Shown piece after piece: positions 9,452-55,600 of a stretch of DNA of 64,000 nucleotides. Below the pieces are notes generated by a model. It was not told the origin of the DNA. It worked only from the letters and a program-made list of their open reading frames with translations, and searched no databases. Origin of the DNA: Stegostoma tigrinum (taxonomy: Eukaryota); contig NC_081355.1 in the NCBI RefSeq assembly GCF_030684315.1, positions 85,460,924 to 85,524,923 on the forward strand, read 5' to 3'. The position numbers and the translations under genes were made by a program. Within the stretch, counting starts at the first letter, position 1; the number at the start of each line of letters is the position of its first letter.

Positions 9452-9742
9452 GGTTAACTGAGAGTGCGCAGGCGCCGCAGCAGATGGGGTAAAGCGGGGG
9501 AAATTGGAGACAGTGACCCGGGGGCTAGGGGACGGGATCCCAAGGGAGGGTGATAGGTGTCAGTATCACGGGGAAGGAGGACTCAGTATCTTGAAGAAAG
9601 TCAGTACCCGGGGGGCAGGCATGGTCAGTATCCTGGGTGAAGGTCAGTGATCACATTCAGAGGGGGTATGGTGTACTGATTAAGTGACTAGGATAAGACG
9701 AATGGTGGGGTAGAGATGGTTAAACAGAAGGAGCAAGCGAGT

Positions 9743-9833
9743 GATGAAGGGTCTAGGCCCGAAACGTCAGCTTTTGTGCTCCTGAGATGCTGCTTGGCCT
9801 GCTGTATTCATCCAGCCTCACATTTTATTATCT
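9743..9833 (+). mobile_element. Stand-alone 91-bp PLE-A terminal fragment carrying a partial hammerhead
   Basis: A perfect 14-bp TSD, AGGAGCAAGCGAGT, is at 9729-9742 and 9834-9847. The insert starts GATGAAGGGTCTAGGCCCGAAACGTC. Confidence 0.85.
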
Positions 9834-12417
9834 AGGAGCAAGCGAGTTGTCGGTTGAGGGTGTTGATGGAATGGTGCAGGGTCTGGGTCAGGGTTGGGGT
9901 GTATGCATTTGGGGGAAGACAGCGTAGAGAGCCCGTGGGCTGGAGGTTTTCGTGGTAAGTGCCAACATTCTGAAGATGAGTCATTCTGGATTCAAGACAT
10001 TAACACTGTTTGTATCCCTATAGAAGCTGCCTCGAGTTTCTGTAGCACATTCAGCTTCTTATCACTGTGGAACATCTTGAAGCTATAGTGTGTTGACTAC
10101 TTGCACCACTCCAAAGGTCATCACCAAATTTGTTAAATCTGGCAGCTGGGAGTACTTACTTATATATTAAGAAAACTCAGTGGTGCGTTTGCAAACCTAG
10201 CAAATTTGCTTAAATTAAAGAATGCCAATGGCTTTGCACAGCCTACACTTCAGTAGAAGGTAGTTCAAACACAATACATTTTTGTGAAAGTACAGCATAT
10301 GCTGAAAAGTCACAAAATGCAAAACCTAAAGATTACTATTAGTAAATGAAGTGAGATTCATTTTTAGGTTAAAGTTTAACCTGTTTGGTACATTTCGTTT
10401 TGTAAACTAAATGCCATTTAACTTGCTAAATTGGATGTGAATGAGTTCAAAGTCTAGTACTCAGAACAGTTCCACTAATGTTGACTGCTCTCTGTAGCAA
10501 TGTATTTGCTTGTTATTGTGAAAAACAAATCAAACACATTGATTGCAAAATACGTTGAACAGCTATAGGAATACCCATTTCTTTATTTTTCCGAAAGGAA
10601 ACTGGAAACAAAGGTGACTTCACAAGCATTAATGGAAAAATATACTTGTATAAATCAAAGTCTATATTATGTAATTTTAGTGAAGTTTATAATCAGCAAT
10701 TCTGTAGCAGAATTTTTCAAGGAATTAACAAAAAAAAACTGGGGATACTGGAAATCAAAAAAAATTACTGGGAAAACTCATCAGGTCTGTCAGCGTCTAT
10801 GGAGAGAGAGCAGAGTTAATGTCTCAGGTCCAGTGATCCTTCAGAAGCAATTTCAGCAATTTATGTTTTGTTCCAGGAATTCTTCTGCAGAAAAAATTTC
10901 ACTTCAGAAATATACTGTTTATTATTTCATATAAATAGCATAGGAGAAGAAATTGACCCAGTGCCTGGCTCACATTTGTTCCTTGACTCTTAAAATATAT
11001 AACATTTTAAAAATGATTTGGAAATGTTTTTGAGATCTTGCTGTTTGCAAATCCTACCTTATTTTAATAGCTTTTAATGGCTTTAAAGCACATTGGGATG
11101 GCCTTAGGTCTTGAAATGTCCTCTATAAATGCATCTTTTTCTACAGTAGTATCCAAATATACTATAAAAATTATTAATTTAGAAATAATTATAGCATTTT
11201 AGGAATTTTGCAGTGTACTCTGTACAAAATTTTCATAAACACAAATACTTTTCTCAGAAACTTTTTCAGATACTCTTAAATTTTAAGATGTAAAGGCATT
11301 TCAATCACAAGACAAAGGGTCTGCAGGAAAGGAACAAAAAAGGGAGTTTGTTTTCAATTGTAGATTAAGTGATACTCTGTATAATAATCAACTGAATTAT
11401 TGAATTGTACCATGACATACTGGCTTTGTTATATTCTGTAAATTATGCAGCATGGGGACATTGTTTTTCAAGTTGCTAACCAAGCTACAAGACCAAATTT
11501 AATATATTTGGGGCTCTCTACAAACTGCAGAAAATCTATATTGTACTATAGAAAACCTTCCATCAACATTTCTAAAAAAAGTACTTAATTTTGACTTGTT
11601 TTATGTTTCTACATCATTCATTCTAAGATCCAACACATTATTCACGACTCAATCATTTGGACTTGCATTCTGTGATTACACTTTCTTGCCAGTGAGAACA
11701 CCGGCTTAGTTTTGTGTCCCCAGCTCTGCTATCACCATTATTGCAACTAAACCTACATCTCTGCTTTTAAAATTGCTGTATGTTCTGCTAATTAAGTAAA
11801 ACAACATAAAATCACAATATCACACAAAATGAGATCAGAATGTACGAACTTGAAATAGAGTCCCATGTGCATGCTTTTGTCAAGTTAGCCCTCCTCCCAG
11901 CGGATGTCACATTATATTCTTGGATTAGTACAAGACATAACATTTGCTATTTGCACTCAAATTACTTTTTACTCATTCTTCCTCCCCAACTAAGATGACC
12001 TTTACATTGTTCACACTGCCCCACTAAGAAGCACATTTTCCTTTACGCATTCCTGCATTTGAAACAGACTCATCGTGTATTTATTCACCCCACTGAGAAG
12101 CACTGTCACTTTGTCCAAACTTCCTCACTCAGAAAGAATATTACTTTAGACCCGAGGGACTCCTTAATGGCTCCTATGATCTCAAGCAGACTCATGATAT
12201 TCAGCTTTGACCATACAAAGTAAAACATTTTGTTCCCCATCTGTCACCAACTGAGAATCAAGCTTGCCCCAGAACGCCTCCCCAATGCAGCACATCTTTG
12301 CCCTCACCTGCCCCAGGTTTACCTTAATCTGAAACGTCCTCTCAGCTAAATACTGATTCAGCTGTGTGTCTGCCATCCCCTCCACCACTCTCACCCAAGC
12401 AACATCTTGAGTTTGTA

Positions 12418-13093
12418 AGATAATAAAATGTGAACCCCGCAAACCATTTCCACTCCCCCTCCCATTCTTTAGATGACATGTCCATCATGGGCCTCCTGCA
12501 GTGCCACAATGATGCCACCCGAAGGTTGCAGGAACAGCAACTCATATTCCGCTTGGGAACCGTGCAGCCCAATGGTATCAATGTGGACTTCACCAGCTTC
12601 AAAATCTCCCCTTCCCCCACCGCATCCCAAAACCAGCCCAGTTCGTCCCCTCCCCCCACTGCACCACACAACCAGCCCAGCTCTTCCCCTCCACCCACTG
12701 CATCCCAAAACCAGTCCAACCTGTCTCTGCCTCCCTAACCTGTTCTTCCTCTCACCCATCCCTTCCTCCCACCCCAAGCCTCACCTCCATCTCCTACCTA
12801 CTAACCTCATCCCACCCCCTTGACCTGTCCATCTTCCCTGGACTGACCTATCCCATCCCTACCTCCCCACCTATACTCTCCTCTCCACCTATCTTCTTTT
12901 CTCTCCATCTTCGGTCCGCCGCCCCCTCACTCCCTATTTATTCCAGAACCCTCACCCCATCCCCCTCTCTGATGAAGGGTCTAGGCCCGAAACGTCAGCT
13001 TTTGTGCTCCTGAGATGCTGCTGGGCCTGCTGTGTTCATCCAGCCTCACATTTTATTATCTTGGATTCTCCAGCATCTGCAGTCCCCATTATC
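12418..13093 (+). mobile_element. 5'-truncated Penelope-like element (family A): GIY-YIG C-terminus, 3' pLTR with hammerhead, and a short inverted 5' cap
   Basis: It encodes ANHFHSPSHSLDDMSIMGLLQCHNDATRRLQEQQLIFRLGTVQPNGINVDF, a PLE endonuclease tail. A 16-bp TSD, ACATCTTGAGTTTGTA, is at 12402-12417 and 13094-13109. The 5' end AGATAATAAAATGTGA is the inverted copy of the 3' TCACATTTTATTATCT. Confidence 0.9.
12965..13000 (+). ncRNA. Minimal type-I hammerhead ribozyme motif with an intact core
   Basis: The motif reads CTGATGA(12969-12975)-A-GGGTC-TA-GGCCC-GAAA-C-GTC. Predicted cleavage is after 12996. Stem III is reduced to the palindrome ACGT. Confidence 0.75.
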
Positions 13094-13619
13094 ACATCTT
13101 GAGTTTGTATCTTTGCACCCGTTCACATTTTTAAATACATTTATAGGTTGCAGTTGTGCTAACAAATTCAGCATTTATTGTCCGTTCTTATTGTTTCATC
13201 AAACAACTGATTGGCTTGCTCCATTCAAAAGGCAGTTAAGAGGCAACTACATTGCAATGGTCTGAAGTCTTATAAAGGCTGGAACAGCTAACGACCACCT
13301 CTTCCCCAAATGATATCAGTAAACAAGTTGGGGTTTTATGACATTCTAGTAGTTTCATCATTGCCATTACTGAAAATAGTTTTTGTTTTAAATTTATATC
13401 TTTTTTCACTCATTGATTTTGAATTCCCTGACCGATGCAATGGGATTTTAATTCGCATTCCTAAATCATCAGACTGGGTCTTTGCATTATTAGCTCAGTG
13501 ACAGAAACTCTCCACTAACCATTTTGGCACTTTCCCATTGTGTTTTCCCTTTCTTGCAGTTAATCTCAGATGCAAATCACCAATGGTACAAAGTGCCATT
13601 CCATATATTTGGTCACATA

Positions 13620-17190: not shown

Positions 17191-18629
17191 GAGATGGGCA
17201 CAGCTCAACCTCCAGTCCTCCATCCTCCAGAAGGAGAAAGAAATAAAATGTGGGACTGATCCATACTTGTCTTGTTTATCTTAATATGGAATTCCAGTTC
17301 ACATTAACGCCATCGTCTCCATGTTCTACTAATTTAAATACATTTTGCTAACTCACCCCATCCTCGACACAACTCAGATAAAAGCAAAATACTACAACTG
17401 CTGCAAATCTGAAATACAAACAGGAAGTGCTGAAGAAACTCAGCATGTCTAGCAGCACCTGTAGAGAGAGAAACAGAGTTAATGTTTTGAATCCAACTGG
17501 TCTCTTCCGAACAATCCCAATATGGCTCTGAAGCAGAGCCATATTGAGCCCAGAATGTCATATTGACTCTTCAGATGCTGCCAGACCTGCTGAATGTCAC
17601 CAACCTGACTCATCTCTCCACTAATACAACTTACCCCAAATCCTCCCCAAGCAAAGTTCTCTTGAGCAAGATGGCAAATCTTGGAAAAATGCAGATAAAA
17701 TAGCAAAGTCAGATTCCTAATATCAAGAAAAGATTTATAATTCTGTCCTTAGGGCTAAACGGCAAGTTCTGAATCTCACTAATGAGTAGCAGTTACTTCT
17801 TTCCATGCATTTACATTGCATTCTTAGCTGATAACACCTTATTTCTATGCGGTTCCTGATTCTCTTTGCCCTCCGCAAGATACCAGATGGCATCAAATTC
17901 TGGCATGAAACTTAGAACAGTTAGCAGACAGCTGCAGATTGCTGTTTGTTTTGTCCAACTCTGTCCTCACAGTATTGTCCGTGCATGGACAATGTCCTCT
18001 TGCACCATGCAATTTGGCATAAGCAAAGCAACAGCTTCACCAAATAACTGCAGCTGCTTTTCGACCAACTCCTATACACTTGTGCCATCTTTGGTATGCT
18101 TCTGCCAGATCTCTGCATGCAGGGACACACACACACATCTCATGCAGCTATGCAAGATCCATCCTATGGAGCTTAGTTTACTTTATTTGCACATGCTCAC
18201 TTTTTATTTACTTGGAGACAGCCACCTTTCGTGGTAAATATTGCTTTTTAATGCATAAGAGAAGGGCAGGTAACTTGCTATCATTTGAAATATTGAATAG
18301 TGGAAGGGATAGACACGGTGTTTATGCCAATGTAGTATTTCAGTGTCACACCTACAGTAAGTGCCAAGAGTTCCCACAATAAACTTGCTGCATCTGCTTG
18401 GGACTAGTCCTTACCTGGTCAGTCAGGGCCCATGGTCAGTCAAGGATACCATCTGTTTACAGTTCAGGGCTGGGACCATTTATTTTGTAATGAGTCGAAC
18501 GGAGGGATTTAGTCTGCTGGAAGTGGCTGGAAGATCAGTTAGTAATGATTGGCAGAAGAGGAATTAAGCTGTTCCCTGTGAATAAGTAAGAAATTCAGAA
18601 TGCAGCAATGGCTAGCAGTTTAGGACGAT

Positions 18630-19520
18630 ATGGTCATAGAGACTATTTGATCCACTTCATCCATGCCAACCAGATATTCTAAATTAATCTAGTCCCATTT
18701 TCCAGCATTTGGTTCATATCTCTCCAAACCCTTCCTATTCATATACCTATCCAGATGCCTTTTACATGTTGCAATTGTACAGGCCTCCACCAGTTCCTCT
18801 TGAAGCTCATTCCATACACACACCATCCTCTGTGTGAAAAGGTTGTCCCTTAAGACCCTTTTAAATCTTTCCCCTCTCACCTTAAACCTACGCCCTCTGG
18901 TTTTGAACACCCCTACTCTGGAGAAAAAATCTTAGCTATTCACAGTATCCATGCCCCTCATGATTAACCTCAATAAGGTCACCCCTCAACCTCTAACACT
19001 GTGGAGAAAACAGTCCCAGCCTATTCAGCCTCTCCCTACAGATCAACACCTCCAATCCTGACAACATCCTTGTAAATCTTTGCTGAACCCTTTCAGGTTT
19101 TACAATATCTTTTCTATAGCTGTGAGAACAGAATTGAATGTGGTATTCCAAAAGTTGCTGAGCCAGTGTCCTGTATAGCTGCAATATGACCGCTCAACTC
19201 CTAAACTCAATGCACTGACCGATAAAGGGAAACGTACCAAAACCTTCTTCACTATCCTATCTACCTGTGACTGCACTTTCAAGGAAATATGAACCTGCAC
19301 TCCAAGGCCCCTTTGTTCAGCAACATTCCCCAAGACCTTAACATTAAGTGTATAAGTCCTGCCCTGATTTGCCTTTCCAAAATGCAGCACCTCACATTTA
19401 TCTAGATTAAACTCCGTCTGCCACTCCTTGGCCTATCTCCACATCTGATCATTGTACTCTGAGGTAACCTTCACTCTCCACTACACTACCAATGTTGGTG
19501 TCATCTGCACATTAATAACC
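18630..19520 (-). mobile_element. CR1 LINE 3' fragment
   Basis: It encodes LHFGKANQGRTYT and FTQRMVCVWNEL. Confidence 0.85.
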
Positions 19521-23441: not shown

Positions 23442-23526
23442 GACAAGGTGTGGAGCTGGATGAACACAGCAGGCCAAGCAGCATCTTAGGATCAGGAAAG
23501 CTGACGTTTTAGGCCTAGACCCTTCA
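23442..23526 (-). mobile_element. Stand-alone PLE-A terminal fragment
   Basis: The TSD TTCCAAAGGT is at 23432-23441 and 23527-23536. The sequence is the same family as 9743-9833. Confidence 0.8.
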
Positions 23527-27800: not shown

Positions 27801-28935
27801 TCTCGAGAATGACCAGTAGCTTACATTTAGTTTTGTAACTGTATTTCTCATTGACCCGATAACAGAAACTTAAGGATTCTGCAACTTGTCATTCTACTAA
27901 GAAAATCTGGCAACTCGAAGTTCAGTTTTAATATTTTGTGGAAAACTATAGTGGAATGTCTGCGAAAGAAAACGGCAAACACTATAGTATTATTGTGCTC
28001 CTTCTTGATCGTGTTTGTAGCTGTGTGTTTGAAGGGCTATTCACAAAACATTTCTAAGTTTGTTCACAGCACATTTTACTATCTCTCAATTCTTAAAAGT
28101 CAGTTGTTTTGATTTGAACTCTTGTTACTGGGCCAGACCGGCCCACTTCCATTAGTATTGATTTTTGTTTTTGTTGGCTTGTTGGTTTGGATGCTAATCC
28201 CTCATTTTTTAATTCGGAACAAATTCGTCGCTTGTAATTTACAAAGTAGTCCTTTTAACTGTTTGTTTTGGGGCACTTCAAGGTCACAATTTGAAATTCT
28301 CATCAGGTGTGTATTTTAAAAGTTATTAATGTGCCTATATTCTAGTATTTGTTCGTCACTGTTCATTTTAATGTGTCTTCTGTGCTTACTAAATGGGATT
28401 CGCAATGATTTTATATGCCACTAACCCAAACACGAAGAATGTTAACAGTCATTGTTGTTGATTCTTTCTAAATAATTGATAGACTAGTGAAGGAATAATG
28501 AATTTTTTTTTCAGTGGAAATACTGGACAGAATGATGAAGCTGTATTATTATCAACAATAGTAAGATGTTGACCTGCAAGGAAATAATTTGTACCATACA
28601 ATGATCCAAGTTCTTAACAATATCAATAAATATACGGCCCTGCATTGATATCATTTGCCCTTAGTGATTAGACATAAAATATTAGATTGAATTTAGTGGA
28701 ACCTTCTGGTTCAGGAATAATCGTAGAGGGCAATGCTGGAACAATAGGGTGGAAACATGGTGCACAACTCATGAAGTAGGTAAACTATCTGCTGGGGGTG
28801 GGAAAGGCCTGATGTGGATATCTTGACCACTTTTACTGAGATACTGTTTCAGAGATAGTAGGAACTGCAGATGCTGGAGAATCTGAGATAACAAGGTGTA
28901 GAGCTGGATGAACACAGCAGGCCAAGCAGCATCAG

Positions 28936-28972
28936 ATTTCTGAAGAAGGGTCGAGGCCCGAAACGTCAGCTT
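28936..28972 (+). ncRNA. Minimal hammerhead ribozyme motif with an intact core, inside a hairpin PLE-A insertion (about 28850-29032)
   Basis: The motif reads CTGAAGA(28940-28946)-A-GGGTC-GA-GGCCC-GAAA-C-GTC(28965-28967). Confidence 0.7.
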
Positions 28973-29334
28973 TCCTGCTCCTTTGGCATTGCTTGGCCTG
29001 CTGTGTACATCCAGCTCTACACTTTGTTATTTCATTTACTGAGATATTGATTGGATTCATGAAAGAACAACTTTATTTATCCTTGAGCCCATCAGGATTT
29101 GATGATGGTTCAGGGATTTAAAGGGACCCATATGGGTTTTTGTGCCTCTCTCTGATGTAGAACTCGATCAAGGCAATCAGTCTGACCACACAGAGAGAGT
29201 CAAGTTGTCAAAGGCAGTTGTAAATCAATGGACTCTTGACACACTGTTATATTATGCCTCAGGATAATGTCACTATAAGATATTATAAGATGAAAATGAG
29301 AAGTAAATGAATAGTAAATCCTTGGGAAATGTTC

Positions 29335-29780
29335 AGAAATCACACAACACTACGCTATAGTCCGACAGGCTTATTTGAAAACGCAAGCTTTCAGAGCCTT
29401 GTTTCTTCTTCAGGTGTCAGTGAGAGATAGTATCAGATACAGAATTTATATGTAAAAGATCAAAGGGTAACACCACTGATAAGGACATATAAAACAAACC
29501 TAAGATGCTGTTAAATCTTTAATCAGTTAGATTTCAATTGATTAATATGTAAATGTAAATCCCTGAATTCCTTTCAAGTCACAGTCCTGAGAGAACTAAA
29601 GAAAAAGGTCTGTTTCCACTCTGTAGGGATTCTATGATGATTAAGAAAAGAAGAAGTGGCTTTTTGGTCAGACAATGCATGTTAGGTGTGAGGCCTTGTT
29701 TAGAATCTGTTTGTATTTTGGTTTGGAGTCAGACTGGTTTTATTTGTAAAGTAGGAATTAATAAAACACCACAAATAACG
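29335..29780 (-). mobile_element. Penelope-like family C 3' end with a decayed hammerhead
   Basis: The reverse complement reads CAC-CTGAAGA(29413-29407)-AGAAACAAGGCTCT-GAAA-GCTT, followed by AAATAAGCCTGTCGGACTATAGCGTAGTGTTGTGTGATTT. Confidence 0.6.
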
Positions 29781-29802: not shown

Positions 29803-29947
29803 AGGTAGGAACTGCTGATGCTGGAGAATCTGAGATATAACGCTGTGAAGCATTCTTCAGAAGGGTCTTGACCCGAAACGTCAGCTTTCCTGCTCCTCTG
29901 ATGCTGCTTGGCCTGCTGTGTTCATCCAGCTTCACACCATTTTATCT
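29803..29947 (+). mobile_element. PLE-A hairpin insertion
   Basis: An inverted 5' part is followed by AGAAGGGTCTTGACCCGAAACGTC. The flanks carry a duplicated AGATGAGT. Confidence 0.75.
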
Positions 29948-32751: not shown

Positions 32752-32877
32752 TTATGATATGACACAGCCACCCTTCTCCTTGAAGGGATTTTTGTCCTCA
32801 GGAATTCCCTTTACCAAAGGATCTTCTGCAGATTGCGATTCAATGTAATCCTTCAGTTCCTCCGCACATTTAGACAC
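32752..32877 (-). CDS. gngt1: G protein gamma-T1, last coding exon
   Basis: The acceptor is ttgtttcag|GTG. Translation: VSKCAEELKDYIESQSAEDPLVKGIPEDKNPFKEKGGCVIS*, which contains the DPL and NPF motifs and a farnesylation-type CAAX box (CVIS). Spliced to the upstream exon it gives 68 aa. Confidence 0.95.
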   Translation of the reverse strand: MSKCAEELKDYIESQSAEDPLVKGIPEDKNPFKEKGGCVIS

Positions 32878-34612
32878 CTGAAACAATTCAATATAAAAGT
32901 TATAAGTGGCAGGTGTAAAACAGCGAGAGTAGAAATTAAACACAATAACCGTAGTATACATTGCAGAGAGCTGTCTCTTGACTTTGAGAATGGGATTTTT
33001 TTCGAATTCATGAAACAGGATGACGGTTTCACTGGTTAGGTAATATTTATTACTGATCCCTAACTTGCCAGAGGGCAGTTCAGAGTCAGCAACATCGCTG
33101 TGGGTCTGGAGTCACATGTAGGCCAGACCAGGTAAGGATGGCAGTTTCCTTCCCTAAATGACATTAGTGAACCGGGTAGGTTTTTCCAACAATCAACATC
33201 AGATTCATGGTCATCATAACATTCTTACTTTCAGATATTTTATTGAATTCAAATTCCACCATCTGCTGTGGCAGGATTCATACCCAGGTCCAGAGACAGC
33301 TATCTGGGTCTCTGGATTAACAATCTAGCAATAATACCACTCAGCCATCATCTCATTATTAGCATATTCGGTCCCGTTGTTTCATACTTTGAATGCAGTG
33401 TTACAATTTCCAACAGATCCTACATTATCTCTAATTAATGTTAATTCACAAAAAGTTAGTGGATTATAGAGGATGCCTTGTGGTAGCACCCCTGCCTCAA
33501 AAAATCAGAAGCTCAGAGCTCAAGTCCCACTGTAATAATGGCTATGGAAAGTGGATCATAATGTGGTCAAACAGGTTGATTAACTACAAATCTTTCCAGT
33601 AAAAGCAGGAGAATCTCCTGGTCAGCCATGAGTGATATGAAGTGTTGTCTCTCCCCAAGCTATAGTTTCTGGCAACAGTGCAGCAACTATTTTGGGGGAA
33701 AAAGATAGCCACAGAAGGCACATAATTATGTGCTTTATCTGCTCTAATGTTTTACTTGACGTATGAAAGTCCAAGTGTAATTTAGATTACAGGTTTAATT
33801 GAAGATTAAACATATTCTGGATTCTTGTGCAATTTGGTCAAATGTTTAGAGTGGCCTTCATTTTAAAAGGAGGAACAAGTGCATCACCATGTTGTGTCCT
33901 GACTCAGCAGGTCTGGGAAGAGAAATCAGAGCTAACTTTTAGGTCCAATGACCCTTCTTCAGGCTTGCTGAGCTTTTCCATCAATTTCTGTTTTTCTTTC
34001 TGATTTCCACCATCTACAGTTCTTTCATTTTCATTTTGTATTTATCAGACATTTGATTTGAAGCCTTGATAATGCTTAATGACTTAGGACAGCAGTGGGT
34101 CATTTTTGTTTTTACTTCAAGCGTTGTTCCCACTCACTCATCAGGCAGATCCAAAGCTATGAAAAATACCATGGTGGATGTGTCATATCATAGATTTGCT
34201 TCTTCACGTTTAGTTTTTATTTAGCTTTTAGTAACGCCGATTGGCAATTTTGAATGCGAGTTGCATTACATGAAGCGAATTTTAACACCAACTTGGCGAA
34301 CGTTAAAGAATAACTGCAGAGCCACCGAACCATATCACAGCTTTCATGTTGGCGTACAAATAGGAGCCGGCGTAGGCCACTTGTAACCCGTCCGGATGTT
34401 CCGCCATTCAATAAAGATTAGGATTGATCCACATTCTCACCCAACCCGAACAACCTCACACCTTGCTCGTCAAAAACCTCTTTTTCCCCCTTAAGAATAT
34501 TCAAAGATTCTGGGACGACTTTTGTTTTGAGGGATAACATTTAGAAGATTCTCCTCCTCTCTGTCTTAAATTGTTTTCCAAGAGCGAGTAAATGAGAAAC
34601 GGGAAACCTTAC

Positions 34613-35902: not shown

Positions 35903-36110
35903 GGAGATAACAAGGTGTGGAGCTGGATGAACGCAGCAGGCCAAGCAGCATCTTAGGAGCAGGAAAGCTGACGTTTTGGGCCTAGAGCCTTCATCGGAAG
36001 CCCAAAACATCAGCTGTCCTGCTCCTCTGATGCTGCTTGGCCTGCTATGTTCATCCAGCCATACACCATGTTATCTTGGAATCCTCAGCATCTGCAGTTC
36101 CTATTATCTC
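35903..36110. mobile_element. PLE-A hairpin (inverted dimer) insertion
   Basis: Two opposed copies of the terminal repeat are present. The TSD is TGACAAAA(A/G)TCAT. Confidence 0.8.
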
Positions 36111-36379
36111 TGACAAAAGTCATCTGTAATCTTTTGGTAAGCTCACTGGTGTAGCCAGGAGGTGCAGGAATGTCCCACACCTCTCAGTATCTCAATCACA
36201 CCTTCTCTCTTTGTTGCTCCACATACCACCTTTTGCAACCTGGAACTGAGACAGTTTCCTCAAACTGGTACAGTCAGATCCAAAGTTGTGAATGACAGGC
36301 ACTCAGCTGTCTCTGTCCAATTTCCTCTGTATGTGTCCAAACCCCTTCCCCACATTCCCAGAACCACAATAGGATTCAT

Positions 36380-36780
36380 CATGACCTCATTTTCCACCTC
36401 ACTAGTCTGCACATTCAAATTATCATTCTTGGTCATTTCTGCCACTTCTAATATGATGCTGTCACCAGATATATCTTCCCTTCGCAGTCGTCAGCATTTC
36501 GAAGGGACTGTTCCGTCAGCAACACATTGGTTTATTCTTTAAGCGCCACCAACGCCCATTCCCTTCCCTGAAACTTTCCCATACAATCATAATACTTACC
36601 CTCTGTCTCCTTTCTCTTTTTATCTATGAGTTCAACATCCAGGTAAAGCAACAATTTACTTCCAATTTAACATTGCTATATTTGTTGCATACAATGTGGT
36701 CTCCTCAGCACTGGGGAGATCAATCTCAGACTCAATAAATGGCATGCCAAACATCTGCAGTCAGACCATAAGTGCACCTT
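36380..36780 (+). mobile_element. Decayed Penelope-like RT/GIY-YIG linker fragment
   Basis: The decayed translation resembles the PLE motif FHPTSLHIQxIILxHF...AFRRDxSLxxxLVHS. Confidence 0.5.
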
Positions 36781-37603: not shown

Positions 37604-37774
37604 GAGATAGTAGGAACTGCAGATGCTGGAGAATCTGAGGTAACAAGGTGTAGAGCTGGATGAACACAGCAGGCCAAGCAGCATCAGAGGAGCAGGAAAG
37701 CTGACGTTTTGGGACTAGACGTTTCTGAAGAAGGGTCTAGGCTCAAAACGTCATCCAGCTCTACAGCTTGTTAT
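37604..37774. mobile_element. PLE-A hairpin insertion
   Basis: Opposed copies include a decayed core, CTGAAGAAGGGTCTAGGCTCAAAACGTC. The TSD is CTAAATT(C/T)TGCCA. Confidence 0.8.
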
Positions 37775-39820: not shown

Positions 39821-40800
39821 TTTTTCTTACATCAAAATCTGTGTCCTTTTGCTGTTTTTCTTTTAGGAGTGGGAACAGTTTCTCTCCATCTCATCTGTCC
39901 AGTTCACTCATGATTTTCAAAACCTGACACTAGTTGCTAAACTAATTGCATTTGCATCCAAAAATCTATCAGAAGTATCATCTAATTATTCCGACGTATA
40001 GCTTGAAACGCTTGCTCTAGTATTCAATATCACAAGGTCTTTTATGTAGTTATTTGGTAAATAATTCACTGGGGAAATCAATTATAAACCATTCAAAATT
40101 ATTTGGCACAAATCATTGACAAGTGCATCATAGAGGCCGCAATGATTTCTGGTAAAATGGAATGTGACTTCAACATCTGTTACAAAGCTGGTGCCAAATT
40201 GTCACCTTAGTTATGCTGAGCAAAACAACGAATCAGGCTTTCCACTGTATCTACCAGTCAACAGCAAGGACATCAAGGTGGAAGATATACTCAAAACTGA
40301 TCTATTGCATCTTGGTCAGAATAAATGCCATTAGTTTGAAATGGAGACAGCTAGTGACTCATAATTCAAAGCCTTGTGGAAAGCTTTCCTTTAAATGGTG
40401 GCTTCACATGATAAAAGGGGTGTCAGACACTGTCTATTCTTTTGGTCTTACAGAGATGAGCTCAGTATCTTGAGAGGCGTTATCTTCAAAGCTAAACAAG
40501 TACTTATACACAAAGCTCTCCACAGGACATAGAGCAGATGAGACTTGGCACACAGCACGGTCAAATATAAAACAAAGACTGCGGATGCTGGAGATCCAAA
40601 ACAAAGGCAGAAATTGCTGGTGAAACTCAACAGATCTGACAGTATCCTCAAGAAGAAAGCAGACTTAATGTTTACATTCTGGTGAGTTTCCATCAGAACT
40701 GATAGCAGTGAGGAAAATTAGTATTTATCCTTGAATGTGATTTTGGGAAAGTGGTGCGAGAAAGGGCAGATGTGAGCAGATAGATGGAGGTGGAGCCCAA

Positions 40801-40823: not shown

Positions 40824-42214
40824 CTCTTTCCAGCATTGAACAGATGTCCTGAAGGTTAGTGTTATATTGGCAAACTAGCCTTTTGGATTCACATTCTGGA
40901 TTGCACAAAACAGTGTCCATGCTGTTCATCATATCATCCCATACCAATACTACATGTCTGGTATCTGAAGTCAAACACTTGGTGAATCGTTTAGCGCATT
41001 AGTGTCAGAAGTCCAATATCACAGAAAGACGGAATCATCCAGAAGTTCAGGTAGTGTGTGCAGGCGTGCAGTGAACAGGTGAATAGGATGGGAAAAATTC
41101 TGAGTGGTTTAAGAGGAAACATCCAGAAACAGATAACTTCTGGGAGATGATGGTATGGAAAATATGTTAGCTATTGTTGTGCATTATTTAGAAGTCAGAA
41201 GAAGAAATCTACAGACCAGTTACAGCTATGCCAACTGAACAAGAATGTTTAAAATGGAGCCTTCACTGGGTTTGAGTATCTGTAAGGTTGTTGTTGAGAA
41301 TAAAAGGGTTTAATCATTATTTTTGATATTTGTAATAGGACAATAAGTTTCAAATAGTTATTGTAAAGTGAAAAACTTGTGTTCCTTTGTGTGTAATAAG
41401 CTTTAATATTCTTTTGTTAAAAGTACGTTAGCAACTTTCTCTTCAGTAAAAGTGACTGACGTCCTGGACAAACAAATCACAAAACTTAAACTTTGGTGTA
41501 TGAAGGCAAATGACACTCTGGGATCTGATTTATCCAGCAAACCTTTATCTGGGATCACAGTAACACTTCCGGTCTTTTCAACTCACTATCCTAATCACGG
41601 TATCACTCACCACTCCCTCTCCCAACTGTGTCAATGCTTTCCATTCATGATTCCTCCTCCTGACCTCTGCAGTGTGAATTATAACAAACGGGAGGCTGAG
41701 AGTTGGTTGAGAGAGGAATAGCCAGCAGAAAGGAATGACAGGTTTGGGAGAAGGCCGGTGAGTCAAAGTCAAACAAAGGAGTCAGAAAGTGGATGGAGAG
41801 TAGGAGGAATCAAAGATATTGGGAGAGGAGCAGTGAGTGGAATGGAGTGAGGGTGTCAGGAGAGGGGAGACAATTGGGTATCAGGAAGCACTCAGGAGAG
41901 GGATGACAATTTGAAAGGCAGTAAGGGTTTTCAGAGAGGACAGGCATGCAAATCAGTGACGACAGTATTAAAAAATGTTCTGTCATAGTAACAATACGGT
42001 CTTGCACCTGCAACTGCGTTATAACAAAATGGAACTCATTAGCATCAATGTTTTCCAGGAATGTTTGCCAATTTACAGTCTTCGCTAAATTGGATTGTCA
42101 AAAATCACTTTAATGGGGCATATCTGTACTTGAAGTGAGAAAAATAGGATTATGGGCAATACTTGGAGGATGTATTAATTAAAGCATTTGATGCATACAT
42201 CATCCCTTAACCAT

Positions 42215-42311
42215 TTTCTGAAGAAGAGTCCAGACCTGATACGTCAATTTTCCTGCCCTTCTGATGTTGTCTGGCCTGCTGTATTTCTCCAGCTTCACAC
42301 TTTGTTATCTA
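42215..42311 (+). mobile_element. Old PLE-A terminal fragment
   Basis: A decayed copy reads CTGAAGAAGAGTCCAGACCTGATACGTC and ends ACACTTTGTTATCT. Confidence 0.65.
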
Positions 42312-44740
42312 GGATTTTAAGAGGACTTGACAGAGAAAAATGCAGAAACATTCTTTCCCCTTGTGGATGTGCCTAGGAGCACAGGGCATAATCTTAGAAT
42401 AAGGGGTCGCTCATTTAAAATGGAGATGAGGAGGAATTTCTTCTGTCAGAGAGTAGTGAATCTGTGGAATTCTTTACCACTCACGACTGTTAAGACTCGA
42501 TCATTAAGTATTTAAATAGATCTTTAATCATTAAGTTATGAGGTTAAGGAAAAATGCAGGAAAGAACCCTTGAGAGTTATCAGATTATCCACAAACTCAA
42601 TCAATGGTGGAGCAGACTCCACCAATATCTTAAGTCACCAGGTCAGACCCCATGAGTTTGGACGTAGTATAGTGGCGTGGATAGAGAATCGGCTGATGGA
42701 CAGGGGATAAGGTGCTCTTTTTCAAGTTGGCAGTCTGCGACCGGTGGGTTGCAGGGACCGCAGCTATTTATAATATATATTTTTGAATTGTGGGAAGAAG
42801 CCAATATACTGTATTTGCAGACAACACAAAATAAGTGGAAAGGTAAGCTGTTAAACAGTTTACAGTGAGGTATTGATAGGTAAAGTAAATGGGCAAAAAC
42901 TTGGCAAATAGAATTTAATGTGGGAAAATATGAAGTTGTTCATTTTTGAAGGCAGAACGGTAGAGAGAGATGGAGCAAAAACCGCAGAAAGCTGCAAGAC
43001 AAAGTGTCTTGGATATACTTGTACATGAAAGACAGAAAGCTAATGCACAGCTGCAGCAGGTAATCAGGAAGGCTAATGGAATGTCAGCAATTATTTCAAA
43101 GGGATTGCAGGATGAGAGTAGGCAAGTCTCACTGCAAATGTACAAGGTGCTGGTGAGACCACATTTGAAGTAATTTTGCTCCCCTGATTTAAGGGCAGAT
43201 ATTATGTCTTTGGAAGCAGCTCAAAAAAGATTCACTGTAATGATCCCTGGTCCGGAAGGATTGTCTTATGAGCAAGGACTAAACAGCTTGAGACTCTACT
43301 CACTGGAGTTTAGAAGAATGAGAAGTGGCCTCATTGAAACACATTGAATTCTTAAGAGGCTTGACAGAGTAAATGTTGAGACAATGTTTCCCCTCATGGG
43401 AGAGTCTAGGACTAGAGGACATAGTCTCAGAAAAACGGGTTGCCAATTTAAGACTCAGATAAGGATGAATTTCTTCCCTCAGAGGGTTGTAAATCTTTGG
43501 AACTCCTCGCCACACAGGAGTGCTGAATCCTGTATTTAAGGCTGAGATTAATTCTTGATTAGTGTAGAATTAATGGTTATGAGGAAAGTGCAGGAAAGTG
43601 GATATGAGGAATGTCAGGTCAACCATAATCCTATTGGTGGAGCAGGCTCGAGGGGCTGAATGGTCTACTCCTGTTCCTATGTCTTCTTCTTTTTACCATC
43701 CTGCCTGGAAAGTGCTTGAATATTTGACTCTATAAGTGCTGAAGGAATGAATATGGGTTTAGAAGGCAATGAATTGACACAGGGACAAAGCTGGGCAGTG
43801 CTGCAGAAGTGGAAATATACAGAAACATGGAAAATAGGAACAGGAGCAGGCCATTCAGCCCTGTGAGCCTGCTGCACAATTCAAAATGATCATGGCTGTT
43901 CATCAGACTCAATACCGCCTTCTTGCTTTGTCCCCCATACCCTTTGATGCTTTTAGCCTTAAGAGCTATAACTAAATTGTCCTTGAAAACTTCCAATATT
44001 TCAGCCTCAGTCACTTTCTGTGACAGAAAATTCTATATTCCCTGGGTGGAGAAATTTTTCCTCATCTCAGTCCTTAAAGCCTTCCTGTATCTTAAACTGT
44101 GACCTCTGGTTCTGGTTTTCCTGATCATCAGCAATATCCTTCCTGTGATTACCCAGTCTAGTCCTGTGAGAATTCTGTAGGTTTCCATGAAATCCCCACT
44201 CATTCTTCCAAACTCCAGCGAATACAGTTCTAACTGATTCACTCTGTGTTCATATATCAATCCTGCTTTCCCATGAATTGGTTTGATAAAACTTTGTTGC
44301 ACTCATTCCACAGCCAAAACATCCTTCCTCAGTTAAGGAGGCCAAACTGCTCACGCTAGGTGTGGTCCCCCTACAGGCCTGTACAACTGCAACAAGACAT
44401 CCCTGCTTTGTACTTTAATCCTCTCACAACGAAGGCAAACATATCATTTGCCGTCTTCACTGCCTGCGGCACCTATATGCTTACTTCCAACAGTTGCTGT
44501 ACACGGACACCCATGGCTCATTGCAACCTCTCTCCTTTCCAAATATATCATCACGAAAATAATAATCTCCCTTCCAGTTTTTGCTACTAAACTGGGTAAT
44601 CTCACATTTATCTGCATTCATGTTCACCTGCCATGTATTTGCCCACTCACTCAACTTGTCCAAATCACATTGAAGCATTTCTGCATTCACCCTCAAAGCT
44701 CACCCTCGCACTGAACTTTGTGTTGTCTGCAGATGATTTT
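42310..44740. mobile_element. Cluster of CR1 fragments: plus strand about 42310-43685, minus strand about 43820-44740
   Basis: Motifs include MRRNFFCQRVVNLWNSLP, YKVLVRPHL and LQCDLDKLSEWANTWQ. Confidence 0.85.
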
Positions 44741-45037: not shown

Positions 45038-45147
45038 ATAATGGGACTGCAGATGCTTGAGAACGATCTAGGCCCGAAACGTCAGCTTTTGTGCTCCTAA
45101 GACACTGCTTGGCCTGCTGTGTTCATCCAGCTCCACATTTTGTTATC
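45038..45147 (+). mobile_element. PLE-A insertion with a short inverted 5' part
   Basis: The TSD TCC(A/G)TACTTTCAGTG is at 45023-45037 and 45148-45162. Confidence 0.8.
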
Positions 45148-45911
45148 TCCGTACTTTCAGTGCCTATTTCGTGAAATGATTGAATGTAAACTTTTATACT
45201 TTATTGAATCAGTCACTTCTACTGATTGCAGACAAAATGGGCAGTGTTACAAAGATGCTTCATGTTTTCCAGCCAGGATCTTTCGATTTGGCCTGAAAAC
45301 TCTTCTTCCACCCCAAATGAGTTAAAACATAAAAACTGAAAGCTCAGCAGGTCTGGCAGCATCTGCGGAGGAGAAAACAGAGTTAATGTTTTGGGTCTGG
45401 TGACCCTTGGAATCTGCAGTTCTTTTGGTTTTTATAAAAACCAAAAGAACTGCAGATGCTGCAAAACAGGAACAAAAACAGAAGTTGCTGGAAAAGCTCA
45501 GCAGATCTGGCAGCACTATGAAGAAAAAAATCAGATTTATCATTTCGGGTCCAGTGACCTTTCCTCAGTGAACTTTCCCTTTTATGTTAGAAATCTTTAT
45601 TTTAGAAGTCTAACTCTAATCCTAACCTAATACACACACAGAAATGGCATTTGTACAGCTTATTCAACAACCTAAGTAATTACCTTCGCCCAAACGTCAG
45701 CATGTGTTCTGTCATGCAAAGTTATACAGCAGAATCATTCAAAAAATTCATAAATTCTCAATTGAATAATACAACAGTGCATAACATAGGTTATATTAAA
45801 GAAAAAAAATAACAAATTTGGTAAAGTATTCTAAGGGACCGGGACTGTGAGACATGTTATATGCACCATTGATTGCACTTCTGGACTGAGAAAATGATGG
45901 CCAAGTTAAAG

Positions 45912-46131: not shown

Positions 46132-46207
46132 ATGACCTGCAGCATCTTGCTGCTATTGGCTTCACCATTCAACATGGCACAGCGAACAAATGTTTCTCCA
46201 AATCCAA
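46132..46207 (+). CDS. Signal-peptide exon 1 of a secreted Kunitz-type protease inhibitor
   Basis: The start context is caccATG. Translation: MTCSILLLLASPFNMAQRTNVSPNP plus 1 nt, ending at the phase-1 donor A|GTATGA. The phase matches the Kunitz exon at 60376. Confidence 0.6.
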
Positions 46208-46554: not shown

Positions 46555-48035
46555 ATAGACTTATAGAGTAATACAGCATGGAAAGGGCCCTTCATCCCGA
46601 CTAGTCTATGCCAACCATGGCACCCACTCAGCTAGTTCCAATTGCCCACATTTCACCCACATCCCTCTAAACGATTCCCATCCATGTACTTATCCAAATA
46701 TTTTTTTAAATGTCACTATTGTACCTGCCTCAACAATTTTCTCTGGCAGCCCATTCCATATACACACCAGTCCCTGCATGAAGAAGTTGCTCCTCAGGTC
46801 CTTTGTAAATCTTTCCCATCTCACCTTAAACCTATACTCTCTAGTTTTGAATTCTCCATCACTGGGAAAAAGACTATATGCATTCATCTTATCCATGCCC
46901 CTGATGATTTTATACACTTCAATAAGGTCACGCCTCATCCTTGTATATTCCAAGGAATAAAGCCCTATTCTGGCTAATCTCTGCCCTATCCTCTTGGTTA
47001 GCTGTTTGAAAAACTCTAAAAGATTAGTCAAACATGATTTCCCGCTTACAAATCCATGCTGACTATCCCTGATCAGACCTTGACTATCCAAATGCTGGTT
47101 GATCCTGTCCCTCAGTATCTCCCCCAATAACTTGTCTACCAGTGGTGTCATGCTCACTGGCCTGTAGGTCCCTGCCTTGTCTTAGCTACCTTTCTTAGGC
47201 AATGGAACAACAACAATTAGCCACCCTCCAGTCTTCAGAAACTTCACCACTGGCAAAAGATGAAACGAATATCTCTGCAAGGGCCTATGCAATTTCTACC
47301 CTAGCATCCCACAACATCCAGGGATAGAATTGATCAGGCCCAGAGGATATATCCACCTTAATGCACGATAGGCCTGGAAACACCTCCTGTCTGGTAATAT
47401 GTATGCAGTCTAAAACATTCCCACTTGTTTCCCTTATTTTCTTAGCATCCGTGATTCTCTTCTCAGTAAACACTCAGGAGAAATATTCATTAAAAATCTT
47501 CCCAATCTCCTTTGGCTCCACACATAGCCATGCTGATCTTTGAGAGGACCTGTTCTCTCCCTAGCCAACCTTTTACTCTTAATACAGCTTTCGAACTTCT
47601 CAGAATTATCTTTAACCTTATCTGCCAGATCCATCTCATACCCTCTTTTTGGCTGTTCTGATTTTCCTTATAAGTGTGCTCTTTCACTTTTTATTGTCAT
47701 CTGGGGATTCATTTGAACCTGATAGCTTAAACCCGATGTATGCTGCCTTCTTTTTCCTGACCAGAGCCTCAATATCCTTTGTCAGCCAGGGATCCCTAAA
47801 CCTGTCAGCTTTTCTCTTCACCCTAACAGGAACATACTATGCCTGGACTCTTGATATCACACTTTTAAAAGCGTCCCATTTGCCAGTCTTTCCTTTTCCT
47901 TTTCACCCAATCGACTTCTGCTAGATCCTGCCTAATGTTCCCAAAATTGGCCCAGCTCCAATTTAGCACATTAACATGTCGATCTGTCCTATCTTTTTCC
48001 ATAACTATGTTAAAGCTAAGAGAGTTATGGTCACT
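46555..48035 (-). mobile_element. CR1 LINE with an internal deletion
   Basis: The RT motif SQHGFVSGKSCLTNLLEFF is joined directly to the C-terminal LYSLEYTRMRRDLIEVYK. Confidence 0.85.
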
Positions 48036-51874: not shown

Positions 51875-52610
51875 TAGAACAAAGAACAAAGAAAATTACA
51901 GCACAGGAACAGGCCCTTTGGCCCTCCAAGCTTGAGCCAATCCAGATTCTCTATCAAAACCTGTCGCCTATTTTCCAAGAGATAATGGGAACTGCAGATG
52001 CTGGAGAATCCAAGATAATAAAGTGTGAAGCTGGATGAACACAGCAGGCTAAGCAGCATCTCAGGAGCATAAAAGCTGACGTTTCGGGCCCAGACCCTTC
52101 ATCCTATTTTCCAAGGATTTGTATCCCTCCGCTCCCTGTCCATTCATGTATCTGTCTAGATACATCCTAAATGACACTATCATGCCTGCCTGTACCACCT
52201 CCACTGGCAACGCGTTCCAGGCACCCGCCACCCTCTCCATAAGGAGCTTTCCATGCATATCTCCCTTAAACATTTCCCCTCTCGCCTTGAAATTGTGATC
52301 CCCAGTAATTGATTCCCCCACTCAGGGAAAAAGCTTCTTGCTATTCACCTTGTCTATAGCTCTCATGATTTTGTAGACCTCAATCAGGTCTCCCCTCAAC
52401 CTGCATCTTTTTAATGTAAATAATCCTAATCTACTCAACCTCTCTGCATAGCTAGCGCCCTCCATGCCAGGCAACGTCCTGGTGAGCCTCCTCTGCATCA
52501 TCTCCAAAGCATCTACATCTTTTTGGTAATGTGGCGGCCAGAACTGTACACAGTTTTCCAAACGTGGTCGAATGAAAGTCCTATACAACTGTAACATGAA
52601 TTCACCCAAT
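51875..52610 (-). mobile_element. CR1 LINE 3' fragment
   Basis: It encodes LQLYRTFIRPRLENCVQFWPP...[12 protein letters not shown] and has a GAACAAA tail. Confidence 0.9.
51980..52102 (-). mobile_element. PLE-A terminal fragment inserted in a CR1 3' end
   Basis: The TSD CCTATTTTCCAAG is at 51967-51979 and 52103-52115. Confidence 0.85.
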
Positions 52611-53519
52611 TCACATAGTTAAAATGAAAATGATCATTCATTAAATAAAAAGTATGAACTCTAGTCAATTTCATTTTTGTCATCCCCAGCACATGGACTG
52701 CATATGTTGCTTTTAAAATATGCAGGTCTCCTAAAGGTTGTCGGCTGTTCATATGATATCTGCTCCTTCGAGGGCAATGTTCTTTCTTGGGAGACTGTTG
52801 TTCAGATGATGAGTGCTGTTACCATGGTAGTTTTTGCTGACTCATTTCCATTGCTTGGGAATGGTGGATCGATGGAACTGATGGTTGTTCTGTACTTTGT
52901 ACTAGTGGTGAGATTACATCTTCCTGATCAGCTGCCTGTAGTGAAGTCACAGCTTTCCTTGTGCATACAGACCTGTGGATGCAACAGTACATCCAGTTGT
53001 TAATGTTCACTGCATCTGATCAGTTATTGAACATGGATCCCAGGTTTTTTCTAAGTTGAGACCAATAAATGTTTGCACAATAACTTGCTCTCCATTGCAC
53101 AGTTTTACCAAAGTGAAATTCAGCTTTCTGCCATTTCATTTGGATTTTGTTACTTGCGCCTTGCTACTACTTCTGGGCTCAATAACTTTTTCCTGCTGGA
53201 AGAGTAGTTTGGCTCCAGTGTGACATTACTCTTTGGACTGAATGGTTTCAGGAGTTGTATTTTGTTACTCAAGGCCTTGTACAAGCTTTGCTCAATTTAG
53301 TTACGATTCTTTGGTGATTTTCACTGCTGTATCAGCCTTTCCATTTGACTGGGGATGCTGTTGACTTGATCTATGATATTGGATTCCTCAACTCTTCAGA
53401 AAACAGCTGCATTCTTTACCTATGAATTGAGGCCATTGCCGCACACTCAATTTCTGGAATGTCCTGATGACTAAAGTGTAGTGTCAGGCATCCTACAAGC
53501 TCAGTGGTGGTCAGGTGGT

Positions 53520-55600
53520 AGTTATAGAGTCATAGAATCAGACAGCATTGAACTAAGCCTTTTGGTCCTCCATGTCTATGCTGACCAACAAACACTAAAC
53601 TTCACTAAGCCCATTTACCTACACTTGATCCATAGGCCGTTGAGTGCTGGCATTTTAAGTCCTCATCCAGATGCTGCTTAAGTGTGGCGAGAAGGTCTGC
53701 CTCTATCACCCTCAAAGGTAGTATGTCCCATATTTCTACCACCCTCTCAGTAAAAAAAAATTCTGAAATCTCCTCACCTTAAACTTATGCCCACTGGTCT
53801 TAGACAAGCCTGCCATAAGGAAACGATTCTCACCATCTATCCTGTCAATACTTCTCATCATTTTATATATCTCAATCAGATCCCCCCTCAGGCCTTTCTG
53901 CTCCAAGGAAAACAAACTCAACCTGTCCAGTCTCTCCTCATAACTGAGATTTTTCATCCTAGGCAACATCCTGGTGAAACTCCTTGCACCCTCACCAGTG
54001 CAATCACATCTTTCTGGTATTGTAGTGACCAAAACTGCACATAGAATTCCATCTGTAGCCTAACCAACGTTTTATAAAGTTGCAACAAGACTTCCCTGTC
54101 CCTATACTCTATGCCCCAGCTAATGAAGGCAACCATCCCATATTCCTTCTTTACCACCCTGGTTACCTGTGCTGGCACCTTCAAGGATCTATGGTCTTGT
54201 ACACCAATGTCTCTTTGTTCCTTAGTCCTCTCTAGACACCTACATTCATTATTTTGATCCTTCCCTTATTGGACCTCCTTAAATGTATCAGCTCGTACCT
54301 AACAGGATTAAATTTCATCAGCCATTGTTCTGCCCAATTTAACAGCTGATCGATATTCGACTGCAGTCAGACACCATCCTCCTTGCAATCAACAACACCA
54401 TCAATTTTTGAGAGATAGTAGGAACTGTAGATGCTGGAGAATCTGAGATAACAAGGTGTAGAGCTGGATGAACACAGCAGACCAAGCAGTATCAGAGGAG
54501 CAGGAAGGCTGATGTTTTAGGCCTAGACCCTTCTTCAGAAGAAGGGTCTAGGCCCGAAACATTAGCCTTCCTGCTCCTCTGATGTTGCTTGGCCTGCTGT
54601 GCTCATCCGGCTCCACACCTTGTTATCTCTTACCATCAATTATTGAGTCACCTTCTGCATTCACATCCAAATCATTAATGTATGCAACAAACAGCAATGA
54701 TGCCAGCACTGATCCCAGTGGTACACAGCTGTTCATAAGCTTCCAACCACAAAACAACCCTCCACCATTATCTTTCATCTCCTATTTGAAAGCCAATTTT
54801 GGATCCAATTTGGTAACTTGCTCTAGATCTCATAGCCTGTTACCTTTTGGACCAGCCTTCCATGTTGAACCTTGTCAAAGGCTTTACTGAAGTCCATTTA
54901 AACTATATGAACTGTGCTACCCTCATCAGTGTATTTATTCACCCTCTCAAAAAATTCATTTAGGGGTCAGACAGGAGCTCCTCCAACAAATCTGTGCTGA
55001 CTATTCCTGGTTAACTACCACCTTTTCAAGTGTTGATTAATATTGTATCTCAGCATTTTTTTCCAGTAATTTCTCTATCACTGCCCTATTCCTGCTGCCT
55101 TTCTTGAACAAAGGAACCATATTAGCCATCCTCAAGGCATCTGGCACTTCTGCTATGGCCAGCAAAGTATTAAATATCTGCTACGGCCCCAGAAATCTCC
55201 TCCTTTGTCTGCCACAGCCGCCTGGGATACATCTCATTAGGTCCTGGGGATTTATGCATTCTTATGCCTGCTGAAACGTCTAACACCTTCTCCTTGTTAA
55301 TCTTAACATTTTCAAGAACATCACTATCCCATGGAAATCTCCAAACGCAATGTCTTTCTCCTTTGGGAGTACAGATGAGAAATGTTCATTTAAGACCTCA
55401 CCAACATCTGCTCACTCCATGCAAAGATTCACCCTTTGGTCTCTAACAGGCTCCATTCTTTCCTTTATAATCCTCTTAATCTTAATATATTTATAAAATG
55501 CCTTGGGCTTTTTCTTAGTCCTATCTTCCAAAGATAATTAATGATCCCTCTTTGCCCTTCTAATTTCTTTCATAAGCAACCCCCTACACTCGCGATACTT
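53520..55600 (-). mobile_element. CR1 LINE 3' portion nested in the Gypsy element
   Basis: CR1 ORF2 motifs (LQLYKTLVR, SLEQKGLRGDLIEIYK) are present. This copy is itself interrupted by the PLE-A palindrome. Confidence 0.85.
54413..54631. mobile_element. PLE-A near-perfect palindromic dimer inserted in a CR1
   Basis: The arms meet at CCCTTCTTCAGAAGAAGGG (about 54528-54546). The TSD ACCATCAATT(T/A)TTGAG is at 54397-54412 and 54632-54647. Confidence 0.85.

Follow-up and report, generated by a model that had tools for sequence, protein, structure and literature searches.

What makes short, noncoding insertions in a shark genome begin again and again at one point inside a hammerhead ribozyme motif? 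The question is raised by a 64-kb window of the Stegostoma tigrinum genome (contig NC_081355.1, positions 85,460,924 to 85,524,923; the window is this whole stretch), in which one repeat family, here called family A, is present at 13 loci. Judged by their sequence, the family-A pieces are fragments of the pseudo-long terminal repeat (pLTR) of a shark Penelope-like element (PLE) that is probably of the Neptune type, and in anatomy they are ordinary PLE products. How PLEs rebuild their pLTR and what their hammerheads do are open questions (PMC2377424 and PMC8557442), and no obvious mechanism was seen for regenerating the upstream pLTR (Schostak 2008). We confirmed that the 5′ boundary of the pieces is fixed and that it recurs outside the window and in two species. 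This boundary is the new part of our results; two 3′ ends and inverted arms are textbook features of PLEs, and an uncleaved template has already been published. A preliminary description of the window had tentatively ascribed the boundary to stalling or template switching of reverse transcriptase (RT) at the folded ribozyme core, and the pieces to a nonautonomous family resembling short interspersed elements (SINEs) or miniature inverted-repeat transposable elements (MITEs). As a whole, this interpretation is partly supported by our analysis.

A Fixed 5′ Boundary at the Hammerhead Core

Family-A loci were collected by BLAST of positions 11000–13200 against the window. Positions within the family are counted from C3 of CUGAUGA in the longest copy (position 0, window 12969), with the predicted GUC cut between +27 and +28. 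Eight loci had been described as independent insertions, and all eight proved to be flanked by direct repeats of 10–16 bp with 0–1 mismatch, enclosing inserts of 85–219 bp. Comparable matches at random window positions numbered 1, 5, 4, and 11 per 3000 trials under four settings of length and mismatch. Two insertions with such target-site duplications (TSDs), at 4952–5047 and 28844–29034, are additional to the earlier list. Four loci are single-arm solo pLTRs: 9743–9833 on the plus strand (+2 to +92, 14-bp TSD) and, on the minus strand, 23442–23526 (start +4, 10-bp TSD), 51980–52102 (start +3, with a tail, 13-bp TSD), and 4952–5047 (start −4 after two extra bases, GT; 12-bp TSD). The copies with boundaries at 9743, 52102, and 23526, for which a breakpoint in CUGAUGA had been noted, have their first bases at +2, +3, and +4, respectively, and in each of them a further base is in common with the TSD. 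Their distance from the predicted GUC cut is 24–26 nt, in agreement with the ~25 nt given before. We likewise concur that the insertions are independent, that the boundary was not made by self-cleavage, and that the template was uncleaved, the latter being already reported for an Anolis element (PMC11167929). Further arms starting between −4 and +5 are found at 28850, 29803, 35903, 37604, and 4952–5047.

The clustering was stronger than had been claimed. The deepest 5′ point lay within −6 to +5 in 9 of the 11 TSD-flanked family-A loci, the misses being 45038 (+5 to +11, scored as a miss) and the 676-bp copy at 12418–13093. With the best-fitting geometric null, P was 2e-10, which becomes 1e-8 when multiplied by 50 to allow for an interval chosen afterwards. 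Two old single-arm copies on the plus strand, which align only from the core on and have no clear TSD, were excluded from this count: 42217 (42211–42316), in which no TSD was found and the 5′ end is therefore not fixed, and 60128 (60124–60219), with a decayed TSD candidate only.

For sequences beyond the window, contigs of four runs (X1, X5, X14, and X18) were aligned on 12725–13110 at 86% likeness. X1 comes from the same organism as the window and may be the window's own source, and X5 comes from another organism; at least 172,197 contigs aligned in X1, at least 7,993 of them only in part. Loose ends refer to the six positions listed per run, 921 further positions lying outside this list. The largest X1 loose end listed was at −1 (12968; 616 contigs, flank agreement 0.37), and the sole other 5′ loose end listed had 68 contigs. 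The same −1 position recurred in X5 (131 contigs) and X14 (17); 12968 is not among the six positions listed for X18. A peak at the core, which the preliminary description had named as a check on its idea, thus exists beyond the window. The flank agreement at −1 is like that of the 3′ ends (0.38–0.44) and not like that of X1 positions clipping into shared sequence (0.65–1.0), which argues that the −1 clips enter unrelated flanks. Summed contig depth in X1 stayed level upstream of the core (the first six bins there had a median of 8.1M, the last six 8.6M), with no gradient through the upstream tract, and stepped 3.7-fold at the core; this depth is not a measure of copy number, and the step is inflated by older subfamilies. 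Older copies differ from the reference just upstream of the boundary (CATTT), so that every end between −2 and about −6 is assigned to −1.

Identity of the Family-A Element

Twelve of the 13 family-A loci consist of pLTR only, and one is longer. This 5′-truncated copy (12418–13093, plus strand, 676 bp) is bounded by a 16-bp TSD at 12402–12417 and 13094–13109; it opens with a 17-nt inverted arm (about +77 to +93), followed by an endonuclease (EN) remnant, a C/T-rich 3′ untranslated region (UTR), the hammerhead, the pLTR, and the tail. It extends ~530 nt further upstream, through the C/T-rich UTR, into the coding remnant. The remnant is the C-terminal part of a GIY-YIG endonuclease (12439–12624, plus strand), with 96% identity to P0001 and 92% to P0002, which their source names as Stegostoma tigrinum and Rhincodon typus, respectively. 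Only this EN tail is present in the window, and it had no Pfam match itself. The GIY-YIG match of P0002 exceeded the curated cutoff, and its RVT_1 match and the GIY-YIG match of P0001 fell short of it; three of the four RT and GIY-YIG matches on P0001, P0002, and P0007 were weak or near the cutoff. P0001 also includes translated UTR and hammerhead sequence like that of the long copy (84% across 121 residues).

Three of the features that define EN+ PLEs could be traced. An RT with a C-terminal GIY-YIG domain in one open reading frame (ORF) was found via the close relatives P0001 and P0002, and a descriptor located a minimal hammerhead motif in the pLTR. A 30–40 bp tail at one end together with an inverted 5′-truncated copy was seen in all seven two-arm loci and in both 3′ peaks of X1. 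The CX4CxxC linker of P0002 points to Neptune or Nematis as the clade of family A, considering that a CX2-5CxxC RT–EN linker marks Nematis besides Neptune (PMC8557442). A search with P0001 confirmed none of 121 candidate loci, and the exact pLTR pattern was found in 0 stretches of metagenome and viral contigs.

The minimal type-I hammerhead motif found by the descriptor scan (12967–12998, plus strand) comprises CUGAUGA at 12969, a 4-bp stem II, GAAAC–GUC, and a 2-bp stem I. The predicted cut falls between 12996 and 12997, and the palindromic ACGT is present. Rfam gave no hammerhead match at E ≤ 1 and seven other matches, all below gathering scores. The PLE tail (13061–13095, plus strand) lies between two fixed 3′ ends at about +92 and +125, which appear both in the window arms and in the X1 loose ends (412 and 279 contigs at 13061 and 13062, or +92 and +93; 470 and 160 contigs at 13093 and 13095, or +124 and +126), at the flank agreement of 0.38–0.44 given above. 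A TTATC motif precedes both fixed 3′ ends (13057–13062 and 13089–13093), and several family-A 3′ junctions share 1–4 bases with the target. In three runs, the loose ends beyond the tail (13093–13095) start with TCTGATAC or a close variant. These common letters suggest that the element continues downstream of the tail in some copies, and that their templates continued into it.

Inverted 5′-truncated PLE copies with a tail at one end are described in PMC8557442 and PMC3846280, and dispersed single minimal hammerheads as well as pairs on opposite strands in PMC4209133. Family A is like the Neptune-type EN+ PLEs of the former two papers in the RT with C-terminal GIY-YIG of its close relatives, in its pLTR hammerhead, inverted arms, and variable TSDs, and in a tail, here ~33 bp, on one arm only. 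It is unlike them in that most insertions are pLTR only, with 5′ ends piled within ~10 nt; in the available texts, Neptune-type PLEs are "variably 5′-truncated," with few solo pLTRs, which lack TSDs and are ascribed to recombination or deletion.

Other classes of short repeats fitted less well. There was no RNA polymerase III head derived from tRNA, 7SL, or 5S as in a SINE (no tRNA gene, and no Rfam match on the copies), and the whole short unit aligns to the PLE 3′ end. MITEs have symmetric terminal inverted repeats and TSDs of fixed length produced by a DNA transposase; here 4 of the 11 TSD-flanked loci are single-arm, arm ends differ, and TSDs range over 10–16 bp. Non-LTR retrozymes (bioRxiv 10.64898/2026.07.22.740005) are similarly short, noncoding, and pLTR-derived, with a type-I hammerhead. 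They form head-to-tail arrays, whereas family-A copies are solo or head-to-head with a TSD of their own (head-to-tail arrays at 0 of 13 window loci; direct-tandem joints rare in X1, 2 contigs per listed joint), and family-A pieces end at the core and the RT start sites instead of the cleavage site.

Two-Arm Insertions

The two-arm insertions, listed without a strand, mostly have an arm that begins close to the same boundary. At 54413–54631 a head-to-head pair has arms from −2 and +2 with a 3-nt overlap, one tailed and the other not (16-bp TSD). The arms at 35903–36110 start from about −2 and +16 and have different subfamily letters at +43/+44 (13-bp TSD), and those at 28844–29034 start from about +43 and −3 (12-bp TSD). 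At 37604–37773 (14-bp TSD) an extra G precedes the plus arm, which starts from −3 and lacks an internal stretch of about +29 to +66, and 29803–29942 consists of a short tail arm, a small inverted piece of −2 to +7, and then an arm from about +5 (13-bp TSD). The arms of 45038–45147 do not overlap (+97 to +125, inverted; about +5/+11 to +92; 15-bp TSD).

In all seven two-arm loci there was one arm at each 3′ site (0.5^7 = 0.008 if the arms chose independently). Since the 45038 arms are nonoverlapping, neither arm was copied from the other, and the differing letters of the two 35903 arms each match other copies. Simple fold-back was rejected as a general source of the palindromes on these two grounds, and two priming events, one per nick, seem to fit the two-arm loci better. 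For 54413, which had been described as folding back at the core, the position of the turn holds, the arms being joined at −2/+2; "folding back" describes the shape only, and its arms were probably primed separately. A single template for both of them is possible, both having the rarer variant at +31. Tail-to-tail joints of the two 3′ ends (13060/13093), on opposite strands, were also present in 13 X1 contigs.

Proposed Run-Off at a Capped RNA Start

To explain the boundary, we lean toward the reading that it is the capped start of the element's RNA, at which RT runs off, so that the template would be the full-length RNA. The RNA would start at about −5 to −2 and would hence carry the pLTR at both ends. 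The element protein would nick the target and prime internally at +92 and/or +125 in the 5′ pLTR copy, as in PAc, the Poseidon element of Anolis carolinensis, and the complementary DNA (cDNA) would end after 90–130 nt, like retroviral strong-stop DNA. In retroviruses, minus-strand strong-stop DNA is the short cDNA made when synthesis reaches the 5′ end of its RNA template and runs off. Joining to the target would trim the family-A cDNA by a few bases to microhomology, which would give ends at −6 to +5; priming from both nicks, one per start site, would give head-to-head palindromes, and long copies would arise by priming at the downstream pLTR.

In favor of this reading are the level depth upstream with its step at the core, the unrelated flanks of the −1 clips, and the presence of one arm at each 3′ site in the two-arm loci. 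Initiators follow the consensus YYANWYY or, in the TCT type, YCTYTYY. A candidate of the TCT type at 12964–12970 (plus strand), a weak sign alone, would place the RNA start at 12965 (−4). Initiator-like motifs put +1 at −4 or −5 in three lineages, represented by the long copy, by 42217 and 60128, and by the copy at 40560 of the related family B; families C and E, two unrelated hammerhead-bearing families of the window, lack them there. Moreover, among the 12 of 110 X1 joints listed, all four that enter at −4, −2, or +2 (before 12965, 12967, or 12971) have a single G between the two sides, which in three of the four is untemplated in either orientation; extra bases also precede arms of 37604 (G) and 4952 (GT). 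In L1 and SVA, an untemplated G at the 5′ end has been read as cap copying (PMC4859970 and PMC9341517).

Family A and PAc (PMC11167929) are alike in two internal RT start sites that flank the tail, in an uncleaved template, and in the priming of both strands. In PAc, priming is internal on pLTR–ORF junction RNA, both strands are extended, and RNA downstream of the start sites is needed; uncleaved RNA is the main substrate, and the tail ends are the two RT start sites, which lie ~90–150 nt downstream of the minimal hammerhead, as in family A. In vitro, the product length of PAc tracks the template 5′ end, and the band keeps its size when the core is mutated. It differs from family A in belonging to another clade, and the available text mentions no fixed 5′ end, a point on which its supplementary figure 2 may bear. 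L1 twin priming (PMC4859970) is alike in that two primers from two nicks give inverted arms, and in the extra G at full-length 5′ ends. The likeness to L1 and retroviruses is an analogy of mechanism only: family A has no poly(A) or tRNA primer, and both of its primers use fixed internal sites. In Drosophila Penelope, the promoter and start site are within the pLTR.

Several points weigh against a capped start at the core. Motifs of the initiator type are degenerate, with 12.7 matches to YYANWYY per kb and 4 matches to YCTYTYY within the 240-nt UTR; the AGTT of family B is also its stem I, and the letters upstream come from one copy without a TSD. The evidence from the G consists of four joints among the 12 of 110, which may share ancestry and are given without strand type, and the three single-arm copies described first start at +2 to +4 without an extra G, that is, 6–8 nt inside and at one-base microhomologies. 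The −1 peak was sharpened by the alignment, which clipped all ends from −2 to about −6 there, and the depth step was likewise inflated. No full-length element with an upstream pLTR was seen, and the searches for related loci given above found none. In the available description of Drosophila virilis Penelope, the start site is followed by 46 nt and a 75-nt intron before the ribozyme, and PAc test templates begin 126–145 nt before the ORF (PMC11167929); a start at the core would thus be without precedent in either element, PAc being of another clade.

Other Explanations of the Boundary

The best surviving alternative, which we still consider unlikely, is that several short nonautonomous masters, at least one per subfamily, were transcribed from the internal promoter of the pLTR and copied in trans, the boundary again being the RNA 5′ end but with solo pLTRs, in the manner of SINEs, as the templates in place of full-length elements. 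The density of copies (13 loci in 64 kb; the at least 172,197 aligned X1 contigs) would suit such masters, a PLE promoter inside the pLTR is known, and nonautonomous PLE derivatives exist, namely MRC1 (PMC8557442) and retrozymes (bioRxiv 10.64898/2026.07.22.740005). A single short master does not account for the copies: they fall into three diagnostic subgroups with no common diagnostic letters, and a distance of only 2 of 75 sites separates 9743 from the coding-derived copy, which differs from most others at 10–21. This closeness of 9743 to a coding-derived copy and the lack of common letters (branch supports of 86–93, none at the starred threshold, in a subfamily tree from which 28850L was left out as too short) also count against several masters. 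Moreover, PAc needs RNA downstream of its start sites, which solo copies lack (PMC11167929), and the letters shared in three runs by loose ends past +124 suggest templates continuing into the element.

We hold it quite improbable that RT stalls or switches template at a hammerhead core that is held together by protein binding or by dimerization with another ribozyme RNA. Both family A and family B do have the boundary on CUGANGA or stem I, and two RNAs may share one complex, as the 35903 arms come from two variants. Stalling at the fold itself, which had been proposed before, was not borne out: the short RNAs of all six copies tested folded no better than shuffles (z from −1.05 to +0.63), and stem II had a pairing probability <0.01 in the predicted monomer fold of the long copy. 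At −1 to +4, moreover, RT has already copied GUC, GAAA, and stem II, and would be stopping on the far side of the structure. Mutation of the PAc core left product size unchanged (PMC11167929), 0 of 3 arms of families C and E end at their similar cores, and the extra G is left unexplained. Folding programs cover the monomer only and not a bound protein; considering that minimal PLE hammerheads were proposed to act as dimers (PMC4209133) and that the PAc ribozyme is protein-assisted (PMC11167929), a small probability is kept for this explanation.

Least probable of all is that the RNA was trimmed 5′-to-3′ to a protein footprint, that the new DNA was cut by the element endonuclease, or that the C/U-rich tract halted RT as it entered: at the boundary the sequence changes to that unstructured tract (51% C, 4% G), and older copies have just upstream the ATT that PAc cuts most often (PMC11167929), yet the young subfamily has the same boundary without ATT, depth shows no gradient through the tract, and trimmed uncapped RNA would give no extra G. 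Two further candidates were rejected: the long hairpin of +2 to +7 with +64 to +69 in young copies is no better than shuffles and is uncompensated in older copies, and a splice acceptor would need an AG, absent at −5 to 0. Two of the listed X1 joints (from 13063 and 13065) enter exactly at +28 (12997), the first base past the predicted cut; they are possibly rare copies from self-cleaved RNA, which is a hint only.

Other Hammerhead-Bearing Families

Family B is a relative of family A (~68% identity), of which 13 stretches were aligned. Four of them start at −4 to 0, fixed by a TSD or an arm junction, and another at +6; in five the alignment extends to the core but the end is not fixed, and the remaining three stop no earlier than +17. 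In the unrelated families C (954–1475) and E (29325–29554), none of the three arms ends at the core, their ends being at about −20, −290, and −141. The boundary therefore appears to be specific to the A/B lineage, in what is a small sample. The family-C locus, perhaps Poseidon-like, is a two-arm insertion with a hammerhead and a broken endonuclease-tail remnant. A family-B tail-to-tail palindrome lies at 45412–45457, within a compound insertion (45339–45574) whose flanks are apparently mutually inverted. Adjoining another family-B arm, a small palindrome of a further hammerhead-like variant (17518–17593) also turns at its CTGAAG core.

Implications for PLE Transposition

A broader proposal, that shark Penelope RNAs start at the first hammerhead base and carry the pLTR twice, and that the main transposition product is a strong-stop-like cDNA, is put forward tentatively and seems to us rather doubtful. 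If it were true, direct insertion of this cDNA would fill the genome with solo and head-to-head pLTRs, at one per 5 kb in the window, and the upstream pLTR would be rebuilt when the cDNA jumped to the other RNA of a dimeric complex. In that case the ribozyme would act as a decapping switch at the start of the RNA. The near base-exact boundary, present at hundreds of independent junctions from two species and from two related families, is a genomic record of a defined intermediate. It also means that a very abundant class of SINE- or MITE-like shark repeats ought to be annotated as products of PLEs. A search of the literature, subscription papers and Repbase entries excepted, found neither a fixed 5′ boundary of PLEs at the hammerhead nor PLE products of the strong-stop kind. 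Rare head-to-tail dimers in X1 have a second unit that begins at the same boundary (13093 to 12966, and 13069 to 12968; 2 contigs each), as a template jump at the 5′ end of the RNA would produce.

Other Features of the Window

A coding remnant of a more distant Penelope-like element (36–37% identity to P0001 and P0002) lies at 36299–36763, 180 bp from the 35903 palindrome. An exon of a G-protein gamma subunit gene is found at 32752–33111 on the minus strand (Pfam G-gamma, E = 1.6e-12). Other repeat families occur at 3866, 26276, 38818, and 48766 and in 18700–19450, 46700–47200, and 58000–59400; they look like a shark SINE and the 3′ ends of long interspersed elements.

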